IMG/VR virus record: IMGVR_UViG_2534681673_000008
Location: 1-44,363 of that record
Direction: 5' to 3' (one strand)
DNA from: a virus
Lineage: Duplodnaviria > Heunggongvirae > Uroviricota > Caudoviricetes
Length of the DNA stretch: 44,363 bases
The notes below the pieces were generated by a model. It worked only from the letters and a program-made list of their open reading frames with translations, was not told the DNA's origin and ran no database searches. Below, piece after piece: positions 640 through 44,363 of the stretch. Position 1 is the first letter of the stretch; each line of letters begins with the position of its first letter. The translations under genes and the position numbers were made by a program.

Positions 640-3600
640 TATGCAAGCCTCACAATATAGTTAAATGCGATGTTTTTGACGGTGTTTTCCGCGTTACCAG
701 CAGCGTTAACGGTGATGGTGTGTCCATGTGAACCAATCGCAACGGAGTGCGTATGAGCACCAATACCGACAGTATGCGCGTGTGCACCTGCAGATGCTGC
801 TGTGCCGGACAGTGAGTGGCTATGATTACCATCTGTACTGGTATTAGCTAACCACCCCGTAGACATACCTACTGAGCCTTGTACACCCCAGGTATTTTGA
901 CCTGAGCTTGTATAACCATATTGATAAGTATCTTTAAAAACACTGGGGTTAAATCGACGGCCATCTCTATGGCTGTGATTACCAGCTGCATTCGTGCTGC
1001 CACTTAAACTATGGGTATGCGCACCAGTGTTATTCGTGGATTTAGTGCCGTAATCAAACGACGATGTGGTTTTCGTCCCCAAATCCGTACTGGATGCGCT
1101 GGCGCTGTGGGTATGCGATTTAATGCCGTCCTGTTCCTGAGACAATACGGCCCGACCACTGGCAGGTTTGCCCTTAATCGTCCAGCCACGCATATCAGGG
1201 ATCACGCCTGACGGATAAGCGGCTGCAAGTTTCGGGTAAGCAGATTTGTCAAAAGCCTGCCCCTGCATCAGGGCATAACCAGACGGAACGGTATCTGATG
1301 GCCACGGGATTGGTGCGCCGACTGGGTAGCTTTCTGGTGGAAGATTTTTCGAGGTATAAACTTCTGCCCAGTCTTCCTCAAAACCATAACCGTCTCTTGA
1401 AGAACGGTAGAACAGACCACCATTTCTGTAATGCGCCTTCATCTGCAGGGTCCGGCAACTTCCGACTCCGGTATAGAAGTTAACCAGAATATAGCTGTCG
1501 CCAGAGCGGGTGACATTGTAAGCGCCTGATTCGGCATTCCATGGAACGCCACCATCCGCATCGGCATATGTATCCGTTGCCCTTCTGGCAAAAGCAGCCA
1601 CATGCGCGGCGGTTAAAGTAATATCTTTGGAACCATCAAACTCAACACCAGAAACCAGTCTTGGCGTTTGCAGCTTTGTTGCTGTTAATGCATTACCGTT
1701 CAGACTTGCGGACAGTTTGGTTCCAATAACCAGTTCGCCGGTTGCGTTATCAATAGCAAACGGTCTTAATGTATTCCAGCCACCATAAACATCACCTTGA
1801 TTGGTAAGCAGCAGGTAAGTTTTAGCGCCATCATTACGCCATAATGCCCCATACTCCCCACCTATCATTCGAATCTGATTACCACCACGCGCTACAATTT
1901 CGTCTGTGGCAAAAAGTTTTTTGCACGACAAGTTATCGTTAACGATTAACGAATGAGACTCATAAAAACCACGCCCACTCTTAAAATCAAGGATAACGTC
2001 CGCCGCGATACATTCAGTCGCCGGATTTGTTGCCCCAAACTTATAGGTCGTATCATTAACAACGAGATCAGCACCAGGTGCGGATATTGACAGGCCATCT
2101 TCAATAAACGCAAAAACAGGGAAAGCAGCGCCATCAACATAGAACACAGAGCGCAAATCATCGCCCTTATTACTCATCATTATTGAGTGAATGGCTCGTT
2201 CATTGTTTTGATATTGCCAGAACATGCCATAAGCATAACGCCCCCTGTCAGTCCAGCCACCAGGCATAACAAATCCGTTAAACTCGCAGTTATTCATCGG
2301 ATCGCCTGCGGTTCGCGTTGCCGTGGTGATAATGACTCTTGATGCCAGTTCGCTTACTGAGCCAGCAGAACGCATAACAACAACAGGGTAATATTTTCCA
2401 GATGTTGCACCTGCAGGAGCGTTAACCCGCACATAACGCATACCACGCTTATCAGCAAAGTCTGTTTTACTGACCGCGTTAATGTTGTTCAGGAAGCATC
2501 CCTTATCGGGTATATCAGCGCCGTTCTGGTCTTTCTGCAGACGTTTCTCTGCATTGTCATAGGCTGATTTTACTGCCTTTGGCGTTGCCGCCAGCGTTTC
2601 AGACGTACTGTTGGTCGCACTGCTGAGCTGTACTATCCCCTTTTTCGTCGTACTTGCATCCTCAAGCGCCACGGCGGATGCAATATCCTCTGCCCGTTTA
2701 GCTGCTGTCTCGGCGCGCGTTGCCGCGGATTCCGCCGTACTTTTGCTCTGAGCTGCCGCCGTCGCACTGCCAGCAGCCTCTGTCGCCTTCGTGGATGCCG
2801 TCGTGGCGCTGCTCTTCGCTGCTGACGCTTGTCTGGTCGCCTCATCTTTTGAAGCAGACGCCGATGATGCCGATGACGCCGCCGAACTGGCTGACGATGC
2901 GGCAGCCGTTTTTGAGGATTCTGCGCTTGTTTCCGACGCTTTCGCGTTCGTTTCGGATGTCTTCGCTGCGGAAGCAGACCTCGCTGCTGCGCTGGCCTGT
3001 TCAGTGGCTTCGCCAGCCTTCGTTGTGGCTGTTGAAGCAGACGATGCGGCGCTTTCTGCCGATTTTCCGGCGGCGGTGGCACTGGCTGAGGCCTGCCCGG
3101 CACTTGTTGACGCTGCACTGGCAGACGACGCAGCCGCTGTTTTTGAGCCTGCCGCAGCCGAGGCGCTCTGTCCCGCTGCCGTTTCAGAAGACCTGGCGTT
3201 CGTCTCGGACGTTTTTGCCGCCTTCGCGGAATTTCCTGCCGCCGTTGCCGAGGAAGCTGCACTACTGGCGCTTGATGATGCGTTCGTTTCTGATGATTTT
3301 GCCGCTTCTTTTGAGGCCGCCGCATCCCGGGCCGAGGTCGCAGCTTCTGATGCCTTCGTGGTCGCGGTGGATGCAGATGTGGCTGCTGATTGTTGTGACG
3401 CTGAAGCATTCGTTTCTGACGTTTTCGCCGCACCGGCACTGGTGGCCGCCGCGCTTTTTGAGGACTCTGCAGCGGCAGCACTTTTTGATGCTTCAGTGGC
3501 CTTTGTTGATGCCGTTCCTGCGCTGGAAGACGCTGACTGAGCCGACGACGCGGCCTGTCCGGCTGACGTGCTGGCTGCGCGTGCTGAGTCCGCAGCATCA

Positions 3601-4043
3601 GCCGCATGGGTTGCCGCCTCACGGGCTGATGTGCTGGCATCACTGGCTGACTTCTTCGCGGCTGCCGTGTTCTGTGCCACCGCGGACGCGTTACGCGCCA
3701 CCTCTTCCACCATCAGTTCAAAACGGCGCAGTGCCTCCGGACGGGCATCATCCTCCGTCATGGCACCGAGAAAATCATTCAGCGTACCGGGTTGAGAATC
3801 TTCATACACGGTAATGGTCCCGGCATGTGACGGCGGGAATCCTTCCACCAACAGAATAACGCTGTACTGACCGTACTCAACGTCCATGCTGTAACGCCCG
3901 GCTTCATCCGGATTTTCTGAGGCCAGCGTGTTCACCACCACCGTGGTGCTGTTACGTTTTGCTTTCAGCTGGATTGTGCAGTTCTGTACCGGTTTTCCTG
4001 TGCCGTCTTTCAGTACACCTGAAATCTTTACTGCCATATTCAC
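639..4043 (-). CDS. stf: Side tail fiber protein (lambda Stf-like, 1134 aa) with expanded Ala/Ser-rich repeats and C-terminal HxH motifs
   Basis: N-terminus [26 protein letters not shown] matches lambda Stf; C-terminal His-x-His repeats as in T4 gp37-type fiber tips. Confidence 0.9.
2650..3700 (-). repeat. In-frame low-complexity tandem repeat region inside stf (repeated AAKTSETNA / SSASSA units)
   Basis: Repeated Ala/Ser/Thr-rich peptide units in the stf translation; generates long spurious ORFs in other frames. Confidence 0.6.
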
Positions 4044-4044
4044 C

Positions 4045-4076
4045 CCACAAAAAAGCCCGCCTGAACCGGCGGGCTG
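4045..4076 (-). terminator. Rho-independent terminator between lom and stf
   Basis: GC hairpin AGCCCGCC-loop-GGCGGGCT followed on the minus strand by TTTTTTGTG. Confidence 0.5.
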
Positions 4077-4101
4077 TCATAACACTGTGTTACCTGGCTA
4101 A

Positions 4102-4701
4102 TCAGAACTTATAACCGACACCCACGATGAAACCGTCAGTGCGCCAGTCGCCACTGCCGGAGCCTTCATAAGCAATATCAATGGCCACGGATTCGGTCGG
4201 GTTAAACTGCACGCCAGCTCCCCACGCCAGAGACGTGTTGCTGTGGCGACCGTCATCACTTCCGGTCAGTACATCGTGCGTTTTCCCCTTGTTGTCAGTT
4301 ACGCGAAGATAATCCCCGGAGAAAGTCGACACACGGCTGTAAGCCACACCCGCCATCGCATACGCGCTGAACCATTCATTCACGCGCACAGACGGCCCCG
4401 CCATCACGCTGAACCAGCGGTTACGCACGGAATCTTCATGCCAGCGGGTATCGCTGTAATGGGTCAGCTGGCGATTCTTGTCTCCTGCATAGCTGAATGA
4501 CGTCACCATCCCCAGTGTGTCCGTAAACTCATAACGGTATTTCACGTTAATCCCGTTCAGATCATCGCTGCCGGGAACGTTCGTCGAGGCATGAAGATAC
4601 CCCGCGCTCAGCGTGGACTGATGTTCAGACGCCCATGCAGGCGCACCGGATACGGCCAGACAAATGGCTGCGGACAAAATGGCGGCATAAAGTTTACGCA
4701 T
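4102..4701 (-). CDS. lom: Outer membrane protein Lom (Ail/Lom family beta-barrel, 199 aa)
   Basis: Signal peptide MRKLYAAILSAAICLAVSGAPAWA and terminal aromatic residue; position between J and stf as in lambda. Confidence 0.9.
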   Translation of the reverse strand: MRKLYAAILSAAICLAVSGAPAWASEHQSTLSAGYLHASTNVPGSDDLNGINVKYRYEFTDTLGMVTSFSYAGDKNRQLTHYSDTRWHEDSVRNRWFSVMAGPSVRVNEWFSAYAMAGVAYSRVSTFSGDYLRVTDNKGKTHDVLTGSDDGRHSNTSLAWGAGVQFNPTESVAIDIAYEGSGSGDWRTDGFIVGVGYKF

Positions 4702-4767: not shown

Positions 4768-8169
<3,402 letters not shown>

Positions 8170-39271: not shown

Positions 39272-39426
39272 AGCATCCTCACGATAATATCCGGGTAGGC
39301 GCGATCACTTTCATCTACTCCATTACAAAGCGAGGCTGGGTATTTCCCGGCCTTTCTGTTATCAGAAATCCACTGAAAGCACAGCGGCTGGCTGAGAAGA
39401 TAAATAATAAACAGGAGGATATATGA
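39268..39426 (+). CDS. Orf60a-like small protein (52 aa); start overlaps exo stop and stop overlaps the next start
   Basis: Hand-translated [52 protein letters not shown] resembles lambda orf60a. Confidence 0.6.
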
Positions 39427-40487
39427 GTCAGGTTGGTAATCATTCATTCGAATTTCCGGCATCGCAAGGTGTACAGGGTGGTACTGTTACACTCTTCCTT
39501 ACCATACCAGGAAGATCGCTGGCTCGTTTCCTCGCTTCAGATAATTACGGCCATACACTGGCACGCTCTCAGCGAGAAATTAATCCAAATCGAGTACGAA
39601 AATTTTTAAATTATCTCACTAACGCAGACTCAAGAAATGAGCCTTTTATCATTCCCCCTCTCGTAGGTAACTGTGATTCGAATATAGAATTTGTACCGTT
39701 TGGCAACACAAATGTTGGTATAGCCAGAATTCCCCTCGACGCCGAAATAAAACTTTTTGATGGTCAACATCGTGCAGCTGGCATTGAGATATTTTGCCGA
39801 AGTTCCCCATCAACGCTCATGGTTCCCATGATGCTTACAATGAATCTGCCGCTAAAAACCCGGCAGCAGTTCTTTTCGGACATAAATAACAACGTTTCTA
39901 AGCCATCAGCGACCATCAATATGGCGTATAACGGCCGGGATGATATTGCTCAGGGAATGATATCCTTCCTGACCCAACATACTGTATTTGCCGATATAAC
40001 CGATTTTGAACACAACGTAGTGCCATTAAAAAGTAATATGTGGGTGAGTTTCAAGGCACTCACTGATGCAACGTCAAAGTTCGCCAGGAACGGCAATCAA
40101 CAACTTGAAATGGGATATATAGAATCTGTCTGGGAGGCATGGATTACACTAACTCAGATTGACTCAATCCGACATGGTGTACACCACGCTACGTACAAGC
40201 GCGATTATATTCAGTTCCATGGAGTAATGATTAACGCTTTCGGTTTTGCGGTTCAACAGATGATGGTTAATCATTCCATCGCAGAAATAACTTCTATGAT
40301 CGAAAAACTATGTGCAACTACCAGCTCTGCAGAAAGAGAGGATTTTTTTCTGATGGATAACTGGGCGGGGATCTGCACGAAAGCCAGCCAGGAAAAACTA
40401 TCTGTTATTGCCAATGTGGCAGCGCAGAAAGCAGCAGCAAACAGACTGATACAAGCTTTTACCAAAGGAAGTCTGGAATCAACTTAA
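39423..40487 (+). CDS. DGQHR-domain protein (DndB-like / ParB-Srx fold, 354 aa) in the accessory slot downstream of exo
   Basis: Hallmark motif FDGQHRAAGIE at about residue 104; size typical of DndB family; AGGAGG Shine-Dalgarno and ATGA overlap with orf60a. Confidence 0.7.
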   Translation: MSQVGNHSFEFPASQGVQGGTVTLFLTIPGRSLARFLASDNYGHTLARSQREINPNRVRKFLNYLTNADSRNEPFIIPPLVGNCDSNIEFVPFGNTNVGIARIPLDAEIKLFDGQHRAAGIEIFCRSSPSTLMVPMMLTMNLPLKTRQQFFSDINNNVSKPSATINMAYNGRDDIAQGMISFLTQHTVFADITDFEHNVVPLKSNMWVSFKALTDATSKFARNGNQQLEMGYIESVWEAWITLTQIDSIRHGVHHATYKRDYIQFHGVMINAFGFAVQQMMVNHSIAEITSMIEKLCATTSSAEREDFFLMDNWAGICTKASQEKLSVIANVAAQKAAANRLIQAFTKGSLEST

Positions 40488-40640
40488 TGAATCAACATTG
40501 TCTCATATCAGCATGCTGTACGGCGTCTTTAAGGAACGGTGAGCATGAAAAACAAAATCATCATGGAGCTACAGGCTCCTTTTTTATTATTCGCATTCAC
40601 CCTCAAGCGTATTAACCAACAATTCAGGGATTAATGAAAG

Positions 40641-40862
40641 ATGGCAGACATCATTGATTCAGCATCAGAAATTGAAGAATTACAGCGCAACACAGCAATA
40701 AAAATGCGCCGCCTGAACCACCAGGCTATATCTGCCACTCATTGTTGTGAGTGTGGCGATCCGATAGATGAACGAAGACGCCTGGCCGTTCAGGGTTGTC
40801 GGACTTGTGCAAGTTGCCAGGAGGATCTGGAACTTATCAGTAAACAGAGAGGTTCGAAGTGA
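40641..40862 (+). CDS. TraR/DksA-family C4 zinc-finger protein (lambda Orf73-like, 73 aa)
   Basis: CxxC...CxxC motif (CCECGDPIDERRRLAVQGCRTCASCQ); 73 aa. Confidence 0.8.
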   Translation: MADIIDSASEIEELQRNTAIKMRRLNHQAISATHCCECGDPIDERRRLAVQGCRTCASCQEDLELISKQRGSK

Positions 40863-41014
40863 GCGAAATTAACTAGAAGCCAAAGATAAAATCATCGCTG
40901 AGCAGGAGAAAATCGCTAACGGAGAAAAGACAGTAAGTCAGTATATGAAAACCGCATGATATCATCAGATAAAAATCGATCGTAAAGCGAAATATTAATA
41001 CCAGAGTAAACGAG

Positions 41015-41038
41015 TCGAGGTAAATTATATTACCTCGA
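41015..41038. other. Stem-loop (9-bp stem TCGAGGTAA / TTACCTCGA) between convergent genes; no clear U-tract
   Basis: Perfect inverted repeat seen in sequence. Confidence 0.35.
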
Positions 41039-41072
41039 TAAATTAACTAAAACTTGCCCGCTATATACTATC

Positions 41073-41675
41073 TCATTCAGTATCATCACGCGCGGTCTGT
41101 GCATATGTCACTACCGCACCTAATGTATTAATTTTCTTTTCAACATAGATAATATTATCGTACTCATAATTGCCATACGGATAGCAAATGCGAATATTCT
41201 CATGTAGATCGGGGTCATCCACCTCAGCTCCAGAACAACTTTTTGAACTACCGGAAGTATACCGATACGGTGCAACATAAGACGATGTATCTCCAGGCAA
41301 AAAATAAGTTAGTGTTGTAAGAGGTATAATCAGAAAAAATCCAGCAAATATGCACATCCCTGCATAAACCTTAAGGTATGCTGACAGACTCTTCCAGCCG
41401 CTTTGTTTTACTATCCCCTTCTTAACCCAAAACAGAGATAACAGAAAAGCTATTCCCATGCTAAACAGAATGTAATAGTGGGATATACTCTGATTAAGAA
41501 ACGTGACCCTGTAAATATCTGCCCGCCACCAGAAGAAAAGGAAAATAAAGATCAGGCCTGAAACTGTCATGCAAATCAAATAAGGATACGAATCTTTTTT
41601 CATGTTTAGCGCCCATAAAATTTTTCCTGCCCCGGACAAATTTACCATCCATTTTTTGCGCAGAAAATAGCTCAT
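41073..41675 (-). CDS. Hypothetical polytopic membrane protein (200 aa; alternative ATG at 41601-41603), antisense to the early-left operon
   Basis: Three to four hydrophobic helices (e.g. YLICMTVSGLIFIFLFFWW); AT-rich; no Shine-Dalgarno evident at either start. Confidence 0.55.
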   Translation of the reverse strand: MSYFLRKKWMVNLSGAGKILWALNMKKDSYPYLICMTVSGLIFIFLFFWWRADIYRVTFLNQSISHYYILFSMGIAFLLSLFWVKKGIVKQSGWKSLSAYLKVYAGMCIFAGFFLIIPLTTLTYFLPGDTSSYVAPYRYTSGSSKSCSGAEVDDPDLHENIRICYPYGNYEYDNIIYVEKKINTLGAVVTYAQTARDDTE

Positions 41676-41917
41676 TACTTACTGCACAATAATACACAAA
41701 ATTGCGTAAATTTTTTGCATGGATTTTAGCTCTTTCAGCCGACGTTTAAGGGGTAAATAGCATTTCCTAAAAGCAACTGCACCAACCCAACAGAATGAGC
41801 TACCGCTTACGTTGAGAGCAAAAAAGTGTATAGCAGCAATGAACAGCATCCTCGCACTGACGGGGATTTCTTTTATCTGAGCTCGCTACGGCGAGTTTTG
41901 TTTTATGGAGACAAGAA

Positions 41918-42262
41918 ATGTCAGATTTGGCTATGAAGGTTTTGAAATGGCAATCAACTGGCGATGTCGGCATCAGTAGCGCAACTCTTGCCTCAATCGC
42001 ATGTGGCCTGAAAAAGAATATCTATGGTCATCACTTCGGCGCTCCCCATGACGCAGCAGACTTTCGGCGATGCGTTGCACTTGTTGAGCAGATTCCAGAA
42101 ATCAGAGATTCATTCGACAAGGTTGCAAAGCGCGTTCCGGCATTCAAAGGAATCCTCAACGAATGGGATTCACTCGTTGCTCTGTTGAAGTCTGAAATGA
42201 AGACGTACGGGAACAAAGCACCAGAGACTTACAGAAGAATCAGCGAGCTACGCAAGGACTAA
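41918..42262 (+). CDS. Hypothetical protein (114 aa)
   Basis: ORF followed directly by terminator hairpins; no recognisable motif. Confidence 0.5.
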   Translation: MSDLAMKVLKWQSTGDVGISSATLASIACGLKKNIYGHHFGAPHDAADFRRCVALVEQIPEIRDSFDKVAKRVPAFKGILNEWDSLVALLKSEMKTYGNKAPETYRRISELRKD

Positions 42263-42265
42263 CCC

Positions 42266-42294
42266 GCCTCACACTCGATGAGGCATTTTCATTT
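42266..42294 (+). terminator. Rho-independent terminator after the 114-aa ORF
   Basis: GCCTCA-CACTCGA-TGAGGC then ATTTTCATTT. Confidence 0.5.
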
Positions 42295-42319
42295 ATCAAG
42301 ATATCCAGACCTACCATCG

Positions 42320-42340
42320 CCGCATCAATGCGGTTTTTTT
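42320..42340 (+). terminator. Second terminator hairpin upstream of the excisionase gene
   Basis: CCGCA-TCAA-TGCGG followed by TTTTTTT. Confidence 0.5.
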
Positions 42341-42385
42341 ATTACCTGATTTGCAGGTTCGATTCCCTATTCGGAGATAGCACTC

Positions 42386-42586
42386 ATGCAACACGAACTA
42401 CAGCCTGATTCCCTGGTTGATTTGAAATTCATCATGGCTGATACTGGCTTTGGTAAAACCTTCATCTACGACCGGATTAAGTCCGGCGACCTGCCAAAAG
42501 CCAAAGTTATCCACGGGCGAGCAAGATGGTTATATCGTGACCATTGTGAATTCAAAAATAAGCTCTTAAGCCGCGCCAATGGGTAA
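42386..42586 (+). CDS. torI: Excisionase / recombination directionality factor, TorI(AlpA)-type (66 aa)
   Basis: Matches remembered KpLE1 TorI (MQHELQPDSLVDLKFIMADTGFGKTFIYDRI...); last prophage gene before the att core. Confidence 0.8.
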   Translation: MQHELQPDSLVDLKFIMADTGFGKTFIYDRIKSGDLPKAKVIHGRARWLYRDHCEFKNKLLSRANG

Positions 42587-42659
42587 AATAGCGGGTAAAA
42601 TATTTCTCACACCTAAAAAACACCATTCCAATCAATCCCCTGCCGCTTCAAGTAGATGT

Positions 42660-42674
42660 CTGCAGGGGACACCA
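42660..42674 (+). other. att core: 15-nt copy of the 3-prime end of tRNA-Arg (argW type), CTGCAGGGGACACCA; not a complete tRNA
   Basis: Matches remembered argW 3-prime end only; upstream sequence does not form the rest of a tRNA. Confidence 0.5.
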
Positions 42675-43115
42675 GATACCCTTCAAACGAAATCTACCTT
42701 CACCCCGTAAAAGATGGGTTTGGCAGCACACTTGCCTTATATCTACTCATTTTTACTGCAACAGGTTGAAATCTCAGCACTGTCAGAAAGCGCTGATGAC
42801 TAAACAGCCCTGGGCCGGGCGATGTAACCATCACACAGAATCCTGATAGCGAAATATGGCGTGACTCGATACTTCACTCCGCAATGCATTCCTTGATGAA
42901 TTCGCAGGACCGTGATACACGGGACAGGTCACTGAATGACGACAATGTCCTGGAAATCAGCGAACCGCGCATCTGAAGTACATTTGAGCGACTGTACCAG
43001 AACATGAATGAGGCGTTTGGATTAGGCGATTATTAGCAGGGCTAAGCATTTTACTATTATTATTTTCCGGTTGAGGGATATAGAGCTATCGACAACAACC
43101 GGAAAAAGTTTACGT

Positions 43116-44363
43116 CTATATTGCTGAAGGTACAGGCGTTTCCATAACTATTTGCTCGCGTTTTTTACTCAAGAAGAAAATGCCAAATAGCAACATCAGG
43201 CAGACAATACCCGAAATTGCGAAGAAAACTGTCTGGTAGCCTGCGTGGTCAAAGAGTATCCCAGTCGGCGTTGAAAGCAGCACAATCCCAAGCGAACTGG
43301 CAATTTGAAAACCAATCAGAAAGATCGTCGACGACAGGCGCTTATCAAAGTTTGCCACGCTGTATTTGAAGACGGATATGACACAAAGTGGAACCTCAAT
43401 GGCATGTAACAACTTCACTAATGAAATAATCCAGGGGTTAACGAACAGCGCGCAGGAAAGGATACGCAACGCCATAATCACAACTCCGATAAGTAATGCA
43501 TTTTTTGGCCCTACCCGATTCACAAAGAAAGGAATAATCGCCATGCACAGCGCTTCGAGTACCACCTGGAATGAGTTGAGATAACCATACAGGCGCGTTC
43601 CTACATCGTGTGATTCGAATAAACCTGCATAAAAGACAGGAAAAAGTTGTTGATCAAAAATGTTATAGAAAGACCACGTCCCCACAATAAATATGACGAA
43701 AACCCAGAAGTTTCGATCCTTGAAAACTGCGATAAAATCCTCTTTTTTTACCCCTCCCGCATCTGCCGCTACGCACTGGTGATCCTTATCTTTAAAACGC
43801 ATGTTGATCATCATAAATACAGCGCCAAATAGCGAGACCAACCAGAAGTTGATATGGGGACTGATACTAAAAAATATGCCGGCAAAGAACGCGCCAATAG
43901 CATAGCCAAAAGATCCCCAGGCGCGCGCTGTTCCATATTCGAAATGAAAATTTCGCGCCATTTTTTCGGTGAAGCTATCAAGCAAACCGCATCCCGCCAG
44001 ATACCCCAAGCCAAAAAATAGCGCCCCCAGAATTAGACCTACAGAAAAATTGCTTTGCAGTAACGGTTCATAAACGTAAATCATAAACGGTCCGGTCAAG
44101 ACCAGGATGAAACTCATACACCAGATGAGCGGTTTCTTCAGACCGAGTTTATCCTGAACGATGCCGTAGAACATCATAAATAGAATGCTGGTAAACTGGT
44201 TGACCGAATAAAGTGTACCTAATTCCGTCCCTGTCAACCCTAGATGTCCTTTCAGCCAAATAGCGTATAACGACCACCACAGCGACCAGGAAATAAAAAA
44301 GAGAAATGAGTAACTGGATGCAAAACGATAGTACGCATTTCTGAATGGAATATTCAGTGCCAT
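43116..44363 (-). CDS. cscB: Sucrose permease CscB (LacY-family oligosaccharide:H+ symporter, 415 aa); host gene flanking the prophage
   Basis: Matches remembered CscB (MALNIPFRNAYYRFASSYSFLFF...); 12-TM MFS protein; start codon is the last three bases of the window. Confidence 0.9.
   Translation of the reverse strand: MALNIPFRNAYYRFASSYSFLFFISWSLWWSLYAIWLKGHLGLTGTELGTLYSVNQFTSILFMMFYGIVQDKLGLKKPLIWCMSFILVLTGPFMIYVYEPLLQSNFSVGLILGALFFGLGYLAGCGLLDSFTEKMARNFHFEYGTARAWGSFGYAIGAFFAGIFFSISPHINFWLVSLFGAVFMMINMRFKDKDHQCVAADAGGVKKEDFIAVFKDRNFWVFVIFIVGTWSFYNIFDQQLFPVFYAGLFESHDVGTRLYGYLNSFQVVLEALCMAIIPFFVNRVGPKNALLIGVVIMALRILSCALFVNPWIISLVKLLHAIEVPLCVISVFKYSVANFDKRLSSTIFLIGFQIASSLGIVLLSTPTGILFDHAGYQTVFFAISGIVCLMLLFGIFFLSKKREQIVMETPVPSAI

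Follow-up and report, generated by a model that had tools for sequence, protein, structure and literature searches.

In a lambdoid E. coli prophage, the exo-xis end was found to hold, next to the excisionase gene, two unrelated units without a common role: a low-GC module carrying a single membrane-protein gene antisense to the pL operon, and a 114-aa gene (ORF114) that is part of the operon itself. The membrane gene has the structure of a moron as defined by Hendrix and Juhala (PMC3594210), namely an extra gene added to a phage genome as a transcription unit of its own, and our best guess is that its product would protect the envelope or exclude superinfecting phages. The cargo label does not apply to ORF114, which is one of the ordinary early genes of phages and widespread among them. 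The account as a whole, a moron for envelope protection placed beside an ordinary conserved pL gene, is offered tentatively, its probability falling somewhat short of even.

The window, i.e. the whole stretch of 44,363 nt that was analysed, contains in this region exo, DUF1317, a DndB-like (DGQHR) gene, TraR/Orf73, the antisense membrane gene module, ORF114, torI and cscB, in this order. From exo to torI all genes are on the plus strand, the only exception being the membrane gene module (minus strand). The last conserved pL gene before the module (40641-40862, plus strand) encodes a TraR/DksA-type zinc-finger protein, the equivalent of lambda orf73 (Pfam zf-dskA_traR, 7.7e-09; phrog_54, 2e-25), and the RefSeq annotation agrees; Orf73 has been described as TraR-like (PMC8614690). 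At the prophage end lies torI (42386-42586, plus strand), the excisionase or recombination directionality factor of KplE1-type prophages, which is labeled 'response regulator inhibitor TorI' in RefSeq and has weak matches to HTH_17 and AlpA of Pfam. The first-pass annotation had reported two ORFs beside an excisionase gene. TorI is that excisionase, and both ORFs are present, at 41073-41675 (minus strand, 200 aa) and at 41918-42262 (plus strand, 114 aa); in RefSeq they are WP_000120059.1 and WP_001281193.1, each named hypothetical protein. An Rfam search of 40400-43200 gave no match. Phage Phi24B has neither the membrane gene nor ORF114.

The module extends from about 40875 to about 41847 (0.97 kb) between TraR/orf73 and ORF114, and stands in place of other exo-xis genes. 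Its flanks are common to Stx phage 1717, g341c and mEp213, which have other genes or none at this site. The left boundary is marked by a scar (40859-40876, plus strand) that was recognized in the alignment with Stx2 phage 1717: identity runs through 'GTGAGCGAAATTAA', the sequences diverge about there, and of the pL ORF located downstream of TraR in other phages the scar retains the five initial codons (GTGAGCGAAATTAAC), followed by a TAG stop. The window's version of the scar was also found in phage 434 and in the O157 Sp3-like prophage. The right boundary is marked by two tandem intrinsic-terminator-like hairpins (41848-41867 and 41879-41898, plus strand) on the 5' side of ORF114. The GC content of the module is 38.0% and that of the membrane CDS 38.6%, compared with 47.5% for ORF114, 52.8% for bet-exo and 50.4% for the window, which bears out the earlier description of an AT-rich gene on the opposite strand. 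Presence or absence between collinear relatives and a deviant base composition, both of which characterize morons, were found for the module.

The membrane gene converges on the TraR gene across a perfect hairpin (41015-41038; arms 41015-41023 and 41030-41038) with a 9-bp stem and a 6-nt loop, as had been noticed before. The hairpin folds with about -14 kcal/mol (z about -4 to -4.5) and is conserved in phage 434 and in the O157 prophage. The terminator scan does not list it, and since a U-tract is missing from both strands it does not qualify as a canonical intrinsic terminator; it may be a transcript-end or stabilizer element. At the other end of the gene, comparison of lambdoid and P2-like copies defined a conserved 5' leader with a putative promoter (41604-41701, minus strand), consisting of two ATTGTGC-like direct repeats (41683-41691 and 41693-41701), a TTTTCT...A-tract (41652-41667) and an extended -10-like TGgTAAATT (41639-41647). 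These elements are common to the lambdoid copies (window, 434, Sakai Sp3) and to the P2-like copies of Salmonella and Klebsiella, and the gene has the conserved leader wherever it is found in phages. A consensus promoter scan called no promoter at the leader, and the -35 region is poor; from the sequence elements we infer that the leader acts as the promoter of the membrane gene.

The annotated form of the membrane protein (200 aa) is too long. Homologue alignments (A1 and A4) place the true CDS at 41073-41603 (minus strand), encoding an inner-membrane protein of 176 aa that starts at Met25 of the annotated form; this start follows from the homologues of other genera and from a frame-breaking 10-nt indel and a stop codon located upstream in Salmonella. 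The 24-codon N-terminal extension (41604-41675) looks spurious and belongs to the leader: the lambdoid and P2-like copies compared above keep the leader elements but not the frame of the extension. A 56-aa ORF further upstream (41679-41849, minus strand), which is a membrane protein in the phage 434 annotation, was rejected, because its frame is not kept in the Salmonella copies and PGAP makes no call. The C-terminal 88 residues of the annotated protein (residues 113-200) match phrog_1416 (E 4.4e-50), a family with unlabelled function. The profile of this family is 90 aa long and spans only the third transmembrane helix and the C-terminal domain; evidently, the first two helices were missed in most phage annotations.

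In the AF2 model of the membrane protein (pLDDT 93.6) transmembrane helices occupy residues 6-29, 38-61 and 71-101, and they are followed by a confidently modelled beta domain of about 75 aa (about residues 102-176). A short strand in loop 1 adjoins the strands of this domain. The charges follow the positive-inside pattern (+2 at the N-terminus, +4 in loop 2, net -6 in the C-domain). An inner-membrane location is predicted from the three hydrophobic helices, the charge pattern and the model, and the predicted topology is N-in/C-out, with the N-terminus and the lysine-rich second loop in the cytoplasm and the beta domain in the periplasm. Alignment of 39 diverse homologues showed that the periplasmic domain is the most conserved part of the protein and that Cys123 and Cys140 alone are invariant among them; the two cysteines are probably joined by a disulfide bond. 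Of the three to four transmembrane helices proposed originally, the AF2 model and hydropathy uphold three and speak against a fourth, and the topology prediction that had been proposed as a check gave three helices in N-in/C-out orientation. Similarly, the 'Cys-containing C-terminal tail' does contain the cysteines, but it is modelled confidently as a folded domain rather than a tail.

Searches for a known family were negative. Pfam and NCBIfam contained no family above the curated cut-off for the membrane protein or for ORF114, no Pfam family passed consistently across 39 and 40 homologues, and PADLOC-DB v2 gave no match for either protein at E <= 1. Sequence-profile searches of the PDB returned nothing significant; matches to CHMP3, GGA1 and a bromodomain (E >= 0.018) were taken as noise. 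The membrane protein, including its beta domain, found no counterpart in the PDB. No PHROG or Pfam exclusion family was matched by the membrane protein, and hhalign comparison of alignment A4 with P22 SieA gave a probability of 0.15% (E 0.4). The earlier statement that neither protein falls into a recognizable family agrees with the Pfam, PHROG, NCBIfam and PADLOC scans, in which the only families found were the unknown-function phrog_1416 and phrog_1229.

The membrane gene is common: 915 of 5426 complete E. coli genomes (17%) have it, and among its carriers are O157:H7 Sakai (ECs_0804), O104:H4 and phage 434. The cassette consisting of TraR, the antisense membrane gene and, further on, xis was found in phage 434 and also in the prophages located at ybhC in O157:H7 and O104:H4; in Sakai Sp3 the membrane gene is intact despite int and bet being pseudogenes. 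Homologues cross genera, down to 16-40% identity, and a scan of the genome collection with alignment A1 returned 10 loci. Three homologues from Salmonella and Klebsiella (P0044, P0048 and P0055; 55-70% identity) lie between gpA and the portal gene Q of P2-like prophages, as a single gene with varying neighbours. According to the searched text of Rousset et al. 2022 (PMC9122126), this locus is an experimentally defined defence hotspot of P2-like phages, with old/tin. In six Enterobacter species a copy occupies a syntenic, non-prophage chromosomal locus, in each case next to GGDEF and AI-2E transporter genes, and further, unrelated non-phage chromosomal loci were found in Klebsiella, Citrobacter (near a histidine-kinase gene and tus) and Pseudescherichia. 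A 3074-aa repeat protein (P0261) with ten profile matches was rejected as a relative; the matches reflect a weak 'ITITYPAG'-type resemblance in a Thr/Val-rich adhesin. The suggestion made in the first-pass annotation, that the membrane gene is a superinfection-exclusion or lysogenic-conversion moron, holds structurally (module, low GC, leader, hotspot), whereas the exclusion or conversion role is something that we infer.

We envisage that the module was inserted antisense in the exo-xis part of the pL operon, bringing along its leader and the putative extended -10 promoter. The membrane protein would be made from the repressed prophage, with its transcript ending near the strong hairpin, and during lytic growth convergent pL transcription would oppose the gene. 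In the lysogen the protein would shield the envelope, its periplasmic domain binding something that arrives from outside. The likeliest target would be the DNA-delivery apparatus of a superinfecting phage, so that exclusion would take place at DNA entry. Expression in the lysogen, the protective function and the target are all parts of this proposal and should be read conditionally.

The parallel that comes closest is P22 SieA, a small inner-membrane exclusion protein of a temperate phage that acts at the DNA-entry step (PMC10883804). As with SieA, the membrane protein is of the class of about 160-180 aa with several transmembrane segments, it is encoded by a single gene with its own (here putative) promoter oriented against the flanking operon, and a role at DNA entry is plausible. 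SieA differs in that it has no comparable C-terminal periplasmic beta domain bearing conserved cysteines, and in position: sieA is on the imm I side of P22, whereas the membrane gene is in the exo-xis region or in the P2 gpA-Q hotspot. HK97 gp15 and T4 Imm and Sp are, like SieA, proposed as functional parallels without homology. Compared with cargo of the P2 gpA-gpQ hotspot, the homologues occupy exactly that locus, but the copy in the window is in a lambdoid prophage, and the family is neither in PADLOC nor among the systems tested in the searched text of PMC9122126.

The chromosomal copies in Enterobacter, Klebsiella, Citrobacter and Pseudescherichia imply that a general envelope function fits as well as phage defence. 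The membrane protein could guard the envelope against an agent other than a phage or have a housekeeping role there, the phages having captured a cellular gene; variants include an orphan immunity protein (against a bacteriocin or a T6SS effector) and an inhibitor of a lysozyme or hydrolase. The non-prophage copies point in this direction, both those at the syntenic locus of the six Enterobacter species and those at unrelated loci of the other three genera, as do the peak of conservation in the periplasmic domain with its two invariant cysteines and the absence of a PADLOC match. The colicin M immunity protein Cmi, which combines a membrane anchor with a disulfide-bonded periplasmic domain, has a similar build. 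Also counted against the defence reading was the share of P2 proteins of unknown function predicted as antiviral, 15% by machine learning and 32% with the genomic-context method (PMC13586616). Nevertheless, comparison with Pfam and the PDB linked the protein to no family of immunity proteins or inhibitors, genes for toxins or effectors were absent next to all copies examined, and the phage copies recur in loci rich in anti-phage genes. We consider non-phage protection rather unlikely, and keep phage exclusion as the preferred reading for the membrane gene.

ORF114 has to be viewed differently. It is a 114-aa cytoplasmic protein encoded at 41918-42262 (plus strand), with the Shine-Dalgarno sequence GGAGAC at 41907-41912. 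Over its whole length (residues 1-114) it belongs to phrog_1229 ('434 ORF114' / HK022 gp30; E 1.8e-51), a family with unlabelled function that was found in 277 records of phages (lambdoid, P22-like, Stx, Vibrio, Mannheimia, Mu-like). It is 94.7-98.2% identical to proteins of mEp213, Stx2 phage 1717 and g341c; the GenBank notes on these relatives cite HK022p30, and the note for phage 1717 also cites 434 ORF114. At E <= 0.01 it has 152 homologues across Enterobacterales (best 120 of 152 listed), and identities go down to 27-43%. The gene is the last one of the pL operon before xis/int, and it keeps this place beside five different integrase modules; in the Vibrio and Mu-like phages an integrase gene does not adjoin the homologues. 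Fusions of ORF114 to Kil, Erf, Ea22 and DUF550 domains are rare, and they turned out to be single-contig deletion fusions with adjacent upstream genes of the same strand, not domain fusions. AF2 modelled the protein confidently as a seven-helix fold (pLDDT 95.1) that has no match in the PDB.

The surroundings of ORF114 indicate how the gene is expressed. On its 5' side, the second of the two hairpins that bound the membrane module lies close to the Shine-Dalgarno sequence; both had been overlooked in the first-pass annotation. A terminator is located immediately 5' of the Shine-Dalgarno sequence in all five phages compared, where it is of two unrelated sequence types, and the annotations of phage g341c and of the Mannheimia phage show a terminator upstream of ORF114. 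On the 3' side there are two terminator-like hairpins (42266-42284 and 42319-42334, plus strand), which are the two tandem terminators described earlier. The first, GCCTCACACTCGATGAGGC, is unchanged in all five phages compared, and the second, GCCGCATCAATGCGGT with a run of seven T, is a canonical terminator that is present also in phage 434. Since the upstream intrinsic terminator is so close to the Shine-Dalgarno sequence, there is no room for a promoter of ORF114's own, and enclosure by intrinsic terminators implies that the gene is expressed probably only with antitermination. The claim of independent transcription thus finds no support for this gene, which is on the pL strand, and its description as cargo is contradicted by the conservation of the family and by its position.

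ORF114 would be expressed under N-type antitermination only, after infection or induction, and would bind a host protein, tuning early development or countering a host function. Binding of a host protein is the most likely role in view of the position of the gene and of analogy with other exo-xis proteins, those studied having been found to affect lysogenization and induction (PMC3824215, PMC8614690). Like the lambda exo-xis genes ea8.5 and orf55, ORF114 occupies the xis-proximal end on the pL strand, and it resembles them in being small and early, in looking non-essential and in its mosaic distribution. In contrast, it has no homology to orf60a, orf63, orf61, orf73/TraR, ea22, ea8.5 or orf55, is absent from lambda, and is far more widespread, extending to P22-like, Vibrio, Mannheimia and Mu-like phages. 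Instead of regulating the choice between lysis and lysogeny, ORF114 could be an anti-defence or host-takeover protein that inhibits a host factor of immunity or DNA metabolism. This would agree with its place in the early operon alongside Gam, Bet, Exo, Kil and TraR, with its retention in temperate phages as well as in Vibrio phages of unestablished lifestyle, with the Lar-like restriction-alleviation gene in the early cluster of Vibrio phage D79, with the early-region location of the copy in the Mu-like phage SuMu together with Gam, and with the compact helical fold that has no known relative. However, ORF114 matched no annotated PHROG family, and the other exo-xis proteins act on lysogenization and induction as cited above. 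By direct count the basic residues slightly outnumber the acidic ones, which makes ORF114 unlike a DNA mimic. We regard the anti-defence role as unlikely, and binding of a host protein, to tune early development or to counter a host function, remains the favoured role for ORF114.

For the membrane protein, an effector of abortive infection in the manner of RexB or SieB, which would depolarize or permeabilize the membrane on sensing a superinfecting phage, is a very improbable explanation. A lone small multi-TM protein in defence-rich loci would suit such a role, and according to the searched text of PMC9122126 the transmembrane proteins of known systems are often suicide effectors. But the gene stands alone among variable neighbours without a conserved sensor partner, its conservation is in the periplasmic domain and not in cytoplasmic loops or pore-lining helices, and it is stably maintained in 17% of E. 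coli genomes and core-like in Enterobacter, with no antitoxin-like partner. As to one or both ORFs being spurious non-coding frames, for which the bare 'hypothetical protein' names and the missing Pfam family might speak, the chance is negligible, because both families are conserved across several genera, the membrane gene is under purifying selection (synonymous sites saturated, dN 0.2-0.3, dN/dS about 0.10-0.15) and AF2 models both proteins at pLDDT 94-95; the lack of conservation that had been named as grounds for refutation was therefore not encountered.

[quoted passage not shown] We consider this combination possible but doubtful. ORF114 is in any case a further gene to be explained in the exo-xis region, whose influence on the induction of Stx prophages is known, and as a new-fold host-targeting protein it would be one whose conservation extends from enterobacterial phages to those of Vibrio and Pasteurellaceae and to Mu-like phages. 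That the membrane gene occurs in two prophage hotspots unrelated to each other, as well as at a stable chromosomal locus of Enterobacter, is a clean example of a cellular gene shuttled as phage cargo. If its product excludes phages, it would be a very common and so far unrecognized resistance determinant in pathogenic E. coli (O157:H7, O104:H4) and Shigella, with a bearing on phage therapy and on the spread of Stx phages.

The two open reading frames that the first-pass annotation had described beside the excisionase gene, a membrane-protein gene on the minus strand (41073-41603) and a 114-aa ORF on the plus strand (41918-42262, ORF114), are both present, and the observation was confirmed. In RefSeq both are labeled 'hypothetical protein' (WP_000120059.1 and WP_001281193.1, respectively), and an identical 2.1-kb stretch is carried by several E. 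coli chromosomes. As had been noted, neither protein belongs to a named family; the only families found were PHROGs of no assigned function (phrog_1416 and phrog_1229).

The window comprises most of a lambdoid E. coli prophage adjoining the csc sucrose locus. Its right end, read along the plus strand, starts with bet and exo (up to 39271) and a DUF1317 gene, and continues with the DGQHR/DndB-like gene (39423-40487), the TraR/DksA zinc-finger gene (40641-40862), whose lambda counterpart is orf73 (PMC8614690), the two ORFs and torI (42386-42586). The last is the final prophage gene before host cscB (sucrose permease), which lies on the minus strand (42587-43115 and 43116-44363). Neither an integrase gene nor, by ARAGORN, a tRNA gene was found within the window; in the KplE1-type layout int and the excisionase gene are at opposite prophage ends, which the torI end without integrase or tRNA fits. 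The 354-aa DGQHR/DndB-like gene stands alone in the exo-xis part of the leftward early (pL) operon, flanked by the DUF1317 and TraR genes. Its product matches Pfam DndB (5e-46), TIGR03187 (5e-55), PADLOC DndB (5e-37) and phrog_7901; no further dnd genes were seen near it, and a DndB-like protein is unusual as a phage early gene.

ORF114 had been taken for cargo, and this part of the reading did not hold: it is a conserved early phage protein, neither cargo nor moron. Its whole length is covered by phrog_1229 (E 1.8e-51). A profile search returned 152 relatives at E <= 0.01, and the best 120 of these come from Escherichia, Salmonella, Citrobacter, Enterobacter and Klebsiella as well as Cronobacter, Pantoea, Yersinia, Serratia and Plesiomonas. 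By tblastn the gene occurs in 277 phage records (lambdoid, P22-like, Stx, Vibrio, Mannheimia, Aeromonas, Arthrobacter and the Mu-like phage SuMu); HK022 gp30 and '434 ORF114' are the same gene according to GenBank notes. Among lambdoid, P22-like and Mannheimia phages it lies on the operon strand and without exception closes the early-left genes ahead of xis/int, regardless of the type of integrase. The highly confident AlphaFold2 model (pLDDT 95.1) consists of seven short helices. Seven single-contig chimeras in public assemblies (proteins P0089, P0091, P0107, P0108, P0123, P0125 and P0137) have a C-terminal portion of ORF114 joined to Kil, Erf, Ea22, DUF550 or another exo-xis protein. They were rejected as domain fusions, being rare deletion fusions of upstream same-strand genes, and seem to reflect in-frame deletions within the early-left operon of prophages in decay.

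The two terminators reported after ORF114 were recovered as terminator-like hairpins at 42266-42284 and 42319-42334, and the terminator scan added two more directly 5' of the gene (41848-41867 and 41879-41898). This plus-strand bracket (41848-41898 and 42266-42334) recurs at the compared loci L019, L020, L021, L002 and L024. An intrinsic terminator directly precedes the ORF114 Shine-Dalgarno sequence in all five phages compared, where two sequence types that are not related to each other take up the same place, and the hairpin GCCTCACACTCGATGAGGC 3' of the stop codon is invariant in five of five enterobacterial phages; the Mannheimia annotation has the same terminator-ORF-terminator-xis-int order. 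Because there is no room for a promoter of its own, ORF114 would be reached only by antiterminated pL transcripts. The bracketing may insulate xis from read-through or mark a module boundary at which recombination occurs. By analogy with the exo-xis genes that have been studied (PMC3824215, PMC8614690), our default guess is that ORF114 would bind a host component and so modulate early development; the chief alternative would be a role against host defences.

The membrane gene is AT-rich, as stated (38.6% GC against 50.4% for the window). The perfect 9-bp-stem hairpin on its TraR-proximal side was found at 41015-41038 (about -14 kcal/mol, z about -4); a U-tract is absent there on both strands and the terminator scan made no call. 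RefSeq/PGAP gives the protein as 200 aa (extension 41604-41675, minus strand) and the phage 434 annotation as 188 aa. The comparisons show a true length of 176 aa rather than 200. Outside the E. coli/Shigella/E. marmotae cluster, all homologues begin where Met25 aligns, and the Salmonella copy has a 10-nt deletion and a stop in the region matching the 24 extra codons. The homologues and the lack of conservation of the upstream frame thus establish Met25 as the real start.

Searches of collections of 5.8 billion and 1.84 billion proteins gave 74 and 61 matches, respectively, all unnamed; the family they make up is small and coherent, its members being about 170-180 aa long. Pfam, NCBIfam and PADLOC scans gave no match, no PDB relative was found by sequence, and profile comparison with P22 SieA was negative (0.15% probability). 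The sole PHROG match, phrog_1416 (no function label), is a 90-aa profile covering only the third transmembrane segment and the C-domain, the last 88 residues, which implies that many phage annotations are too short. Of the three to four transmembrane helices proposed, three stood by hydropathy and in the AlphaFold2 model built from a 39-member alignment (pLDDT 93.6; helices 6-29, 38-61 and 71-101), and the fourth did not. The cysteines of the supposed C-terminal tail are real, but the tail is a folded domain in the model, with five beta strands spanning 105-171. Cys123 and Cys140 (176-aa numbering), within the motif CSGAxVxDPxL...IRICYPxG, are the sole residues invariant among the 39 diverse members. 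The charges (N-terminus +2, loop 2 +4, C-domain net -6) predict an N-in/C-out topology with the cysteine pair in the oxidising periplasm, where a Cys123-Cys140 disulfide would form. Synonymous change is saturated and dN is 0.2-0.3 (pairwise Nei-Gojobori); with dN/dS about 0.10-0.15, the gene is therefore real and constrained.

The gene lies in a mobile low-GC module. For this gene the cargo reading was right in kind, and putative as to function. As far as TraR and the initial codons of the following pL ORF (GTGAGCGAAATTAA...), the window and Stx2 phage 1717 are identical; they diverge at about 40875, after a five-codon scar and a stop. This scar (GTGAGCGAAATTAAC then TAG, 40859-40876, plus strand) is what is left of an ORF that in phage 1717 runs over the stop codon of TraR, and it marks the point where the module replaced the ea22-side genes. 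On the right, the match to phages without the membrane gene restarts at the terminator 5' of ORF114, about 41848, leaving a 0.97-kb interval of 38% GC. The cassette is also in phage 434, phage 2B8 and mEp332, and in O157:H7 and O104:H4 prophages at the lambda attachment site (ybhC), there with lambda-type xis/int and without ORF114. The O157:H7 Sakai copy (ECs_0804, prophage Sp3) is intact while int and bet are pseudogenes. Altogether, 915 of 5426 complete E. coli genomes carry the gene. A copy 98% identical to that of E. coli, on a 3.5-kb contig binned as 'Candidatus Nanosynbacter sp.' (L029, JARKOR010000073.1), is almost certainly mis-binned E. coli prophage DNA.

Homologues 55-70% identical, with varying neighbours, lie in P2-like prophages of Salmonella and Klebsiella between the portal gene and replication gene A, an experimentally defined P2 defence hotspot holding old and tin (PMC9122126). 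In the Klebsiella P2-like prophage (L012-L014), the hotspot also encodes, at positions 1281-4623 next to the homologue, an AAA_16-type ATPase of 790 aa and, on the opposite strand, a protein of 279 aa; these probably make up a defence system of their own. Lambdoid and P2-like copies have in common about 100 nt of non-coding sequence on their upstream side, which suggests that the gene travels with its own putative promoter. In this leader, ATTGTGC(A) is repeated directly two or three times in tandem, at a spacing of about 10-11 nt, and there are also a TTTTCT/A-tract and, about 35 nt 5' of the start codon, an extended -10-like TGnTAAATT. The repeats and -10-like element (41639-41701, minus strand) also precede the copies at L003, L004, L012 and L015-L017 (upstream of position 5001), and are absent upstream of the Enterobacter and Klebsiella copies on the chromosome. 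A regulator may bind at this site, which would travel with the gene. The leader also suggests that transcription would start downstream of the annotated 200-aa start; we infer the promoter activity. A 56-aa ORF at 41679-41849 (minus strand), the 'putative membrane protein' CPT_434B_35 of phage 434, was rejected as probably not a gene, because the Salmonella copies do not keep its frame open and it is missing from the PGAP calls.

As to function, the family is not phage-specific, and for P2 the proteins without known role that machine-learning methods predict to be antiviral amount to 15%, or to 32% when the method draws on genomic context (PMC13586616). We therefore commit only to an inner-membrane protein that would be made by the prophage and would use its conserved periplasmic domain to intercept something from outside. 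In the likeliest version, put forward tentatively, it would block DNA entry by superinfecting phages. A serious rival, rated somewhat lower, is a function in the envelope or in immunity that has nothing to do with phages: six species of the Enterobacter cloacae complex carry the gene (36-44% identical) at a single syntenic locus of the chromosome, where its neighbours in all six are the GGDEF and AI-2E transporter genes, and it occurs at unrelated non-phage loci in Klebsiella (beside a PTS operon of the bgl type), Citrobacter (close to tus and a histidine-kinase gene) and Pseudescherichia. An abortive-infection effector is less likely, as there is no conserved partner gene and conservation is concentrated in the periplasmic domain.

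Both proteins fall in catalogued families lacking characterisation and do not depart from known kinds of prophage features. Being common, present in phage 434 and major pathogens, and found repeatedly in two prophage hotspots independent of each other, the membrane module is a good and cheap experimental target.
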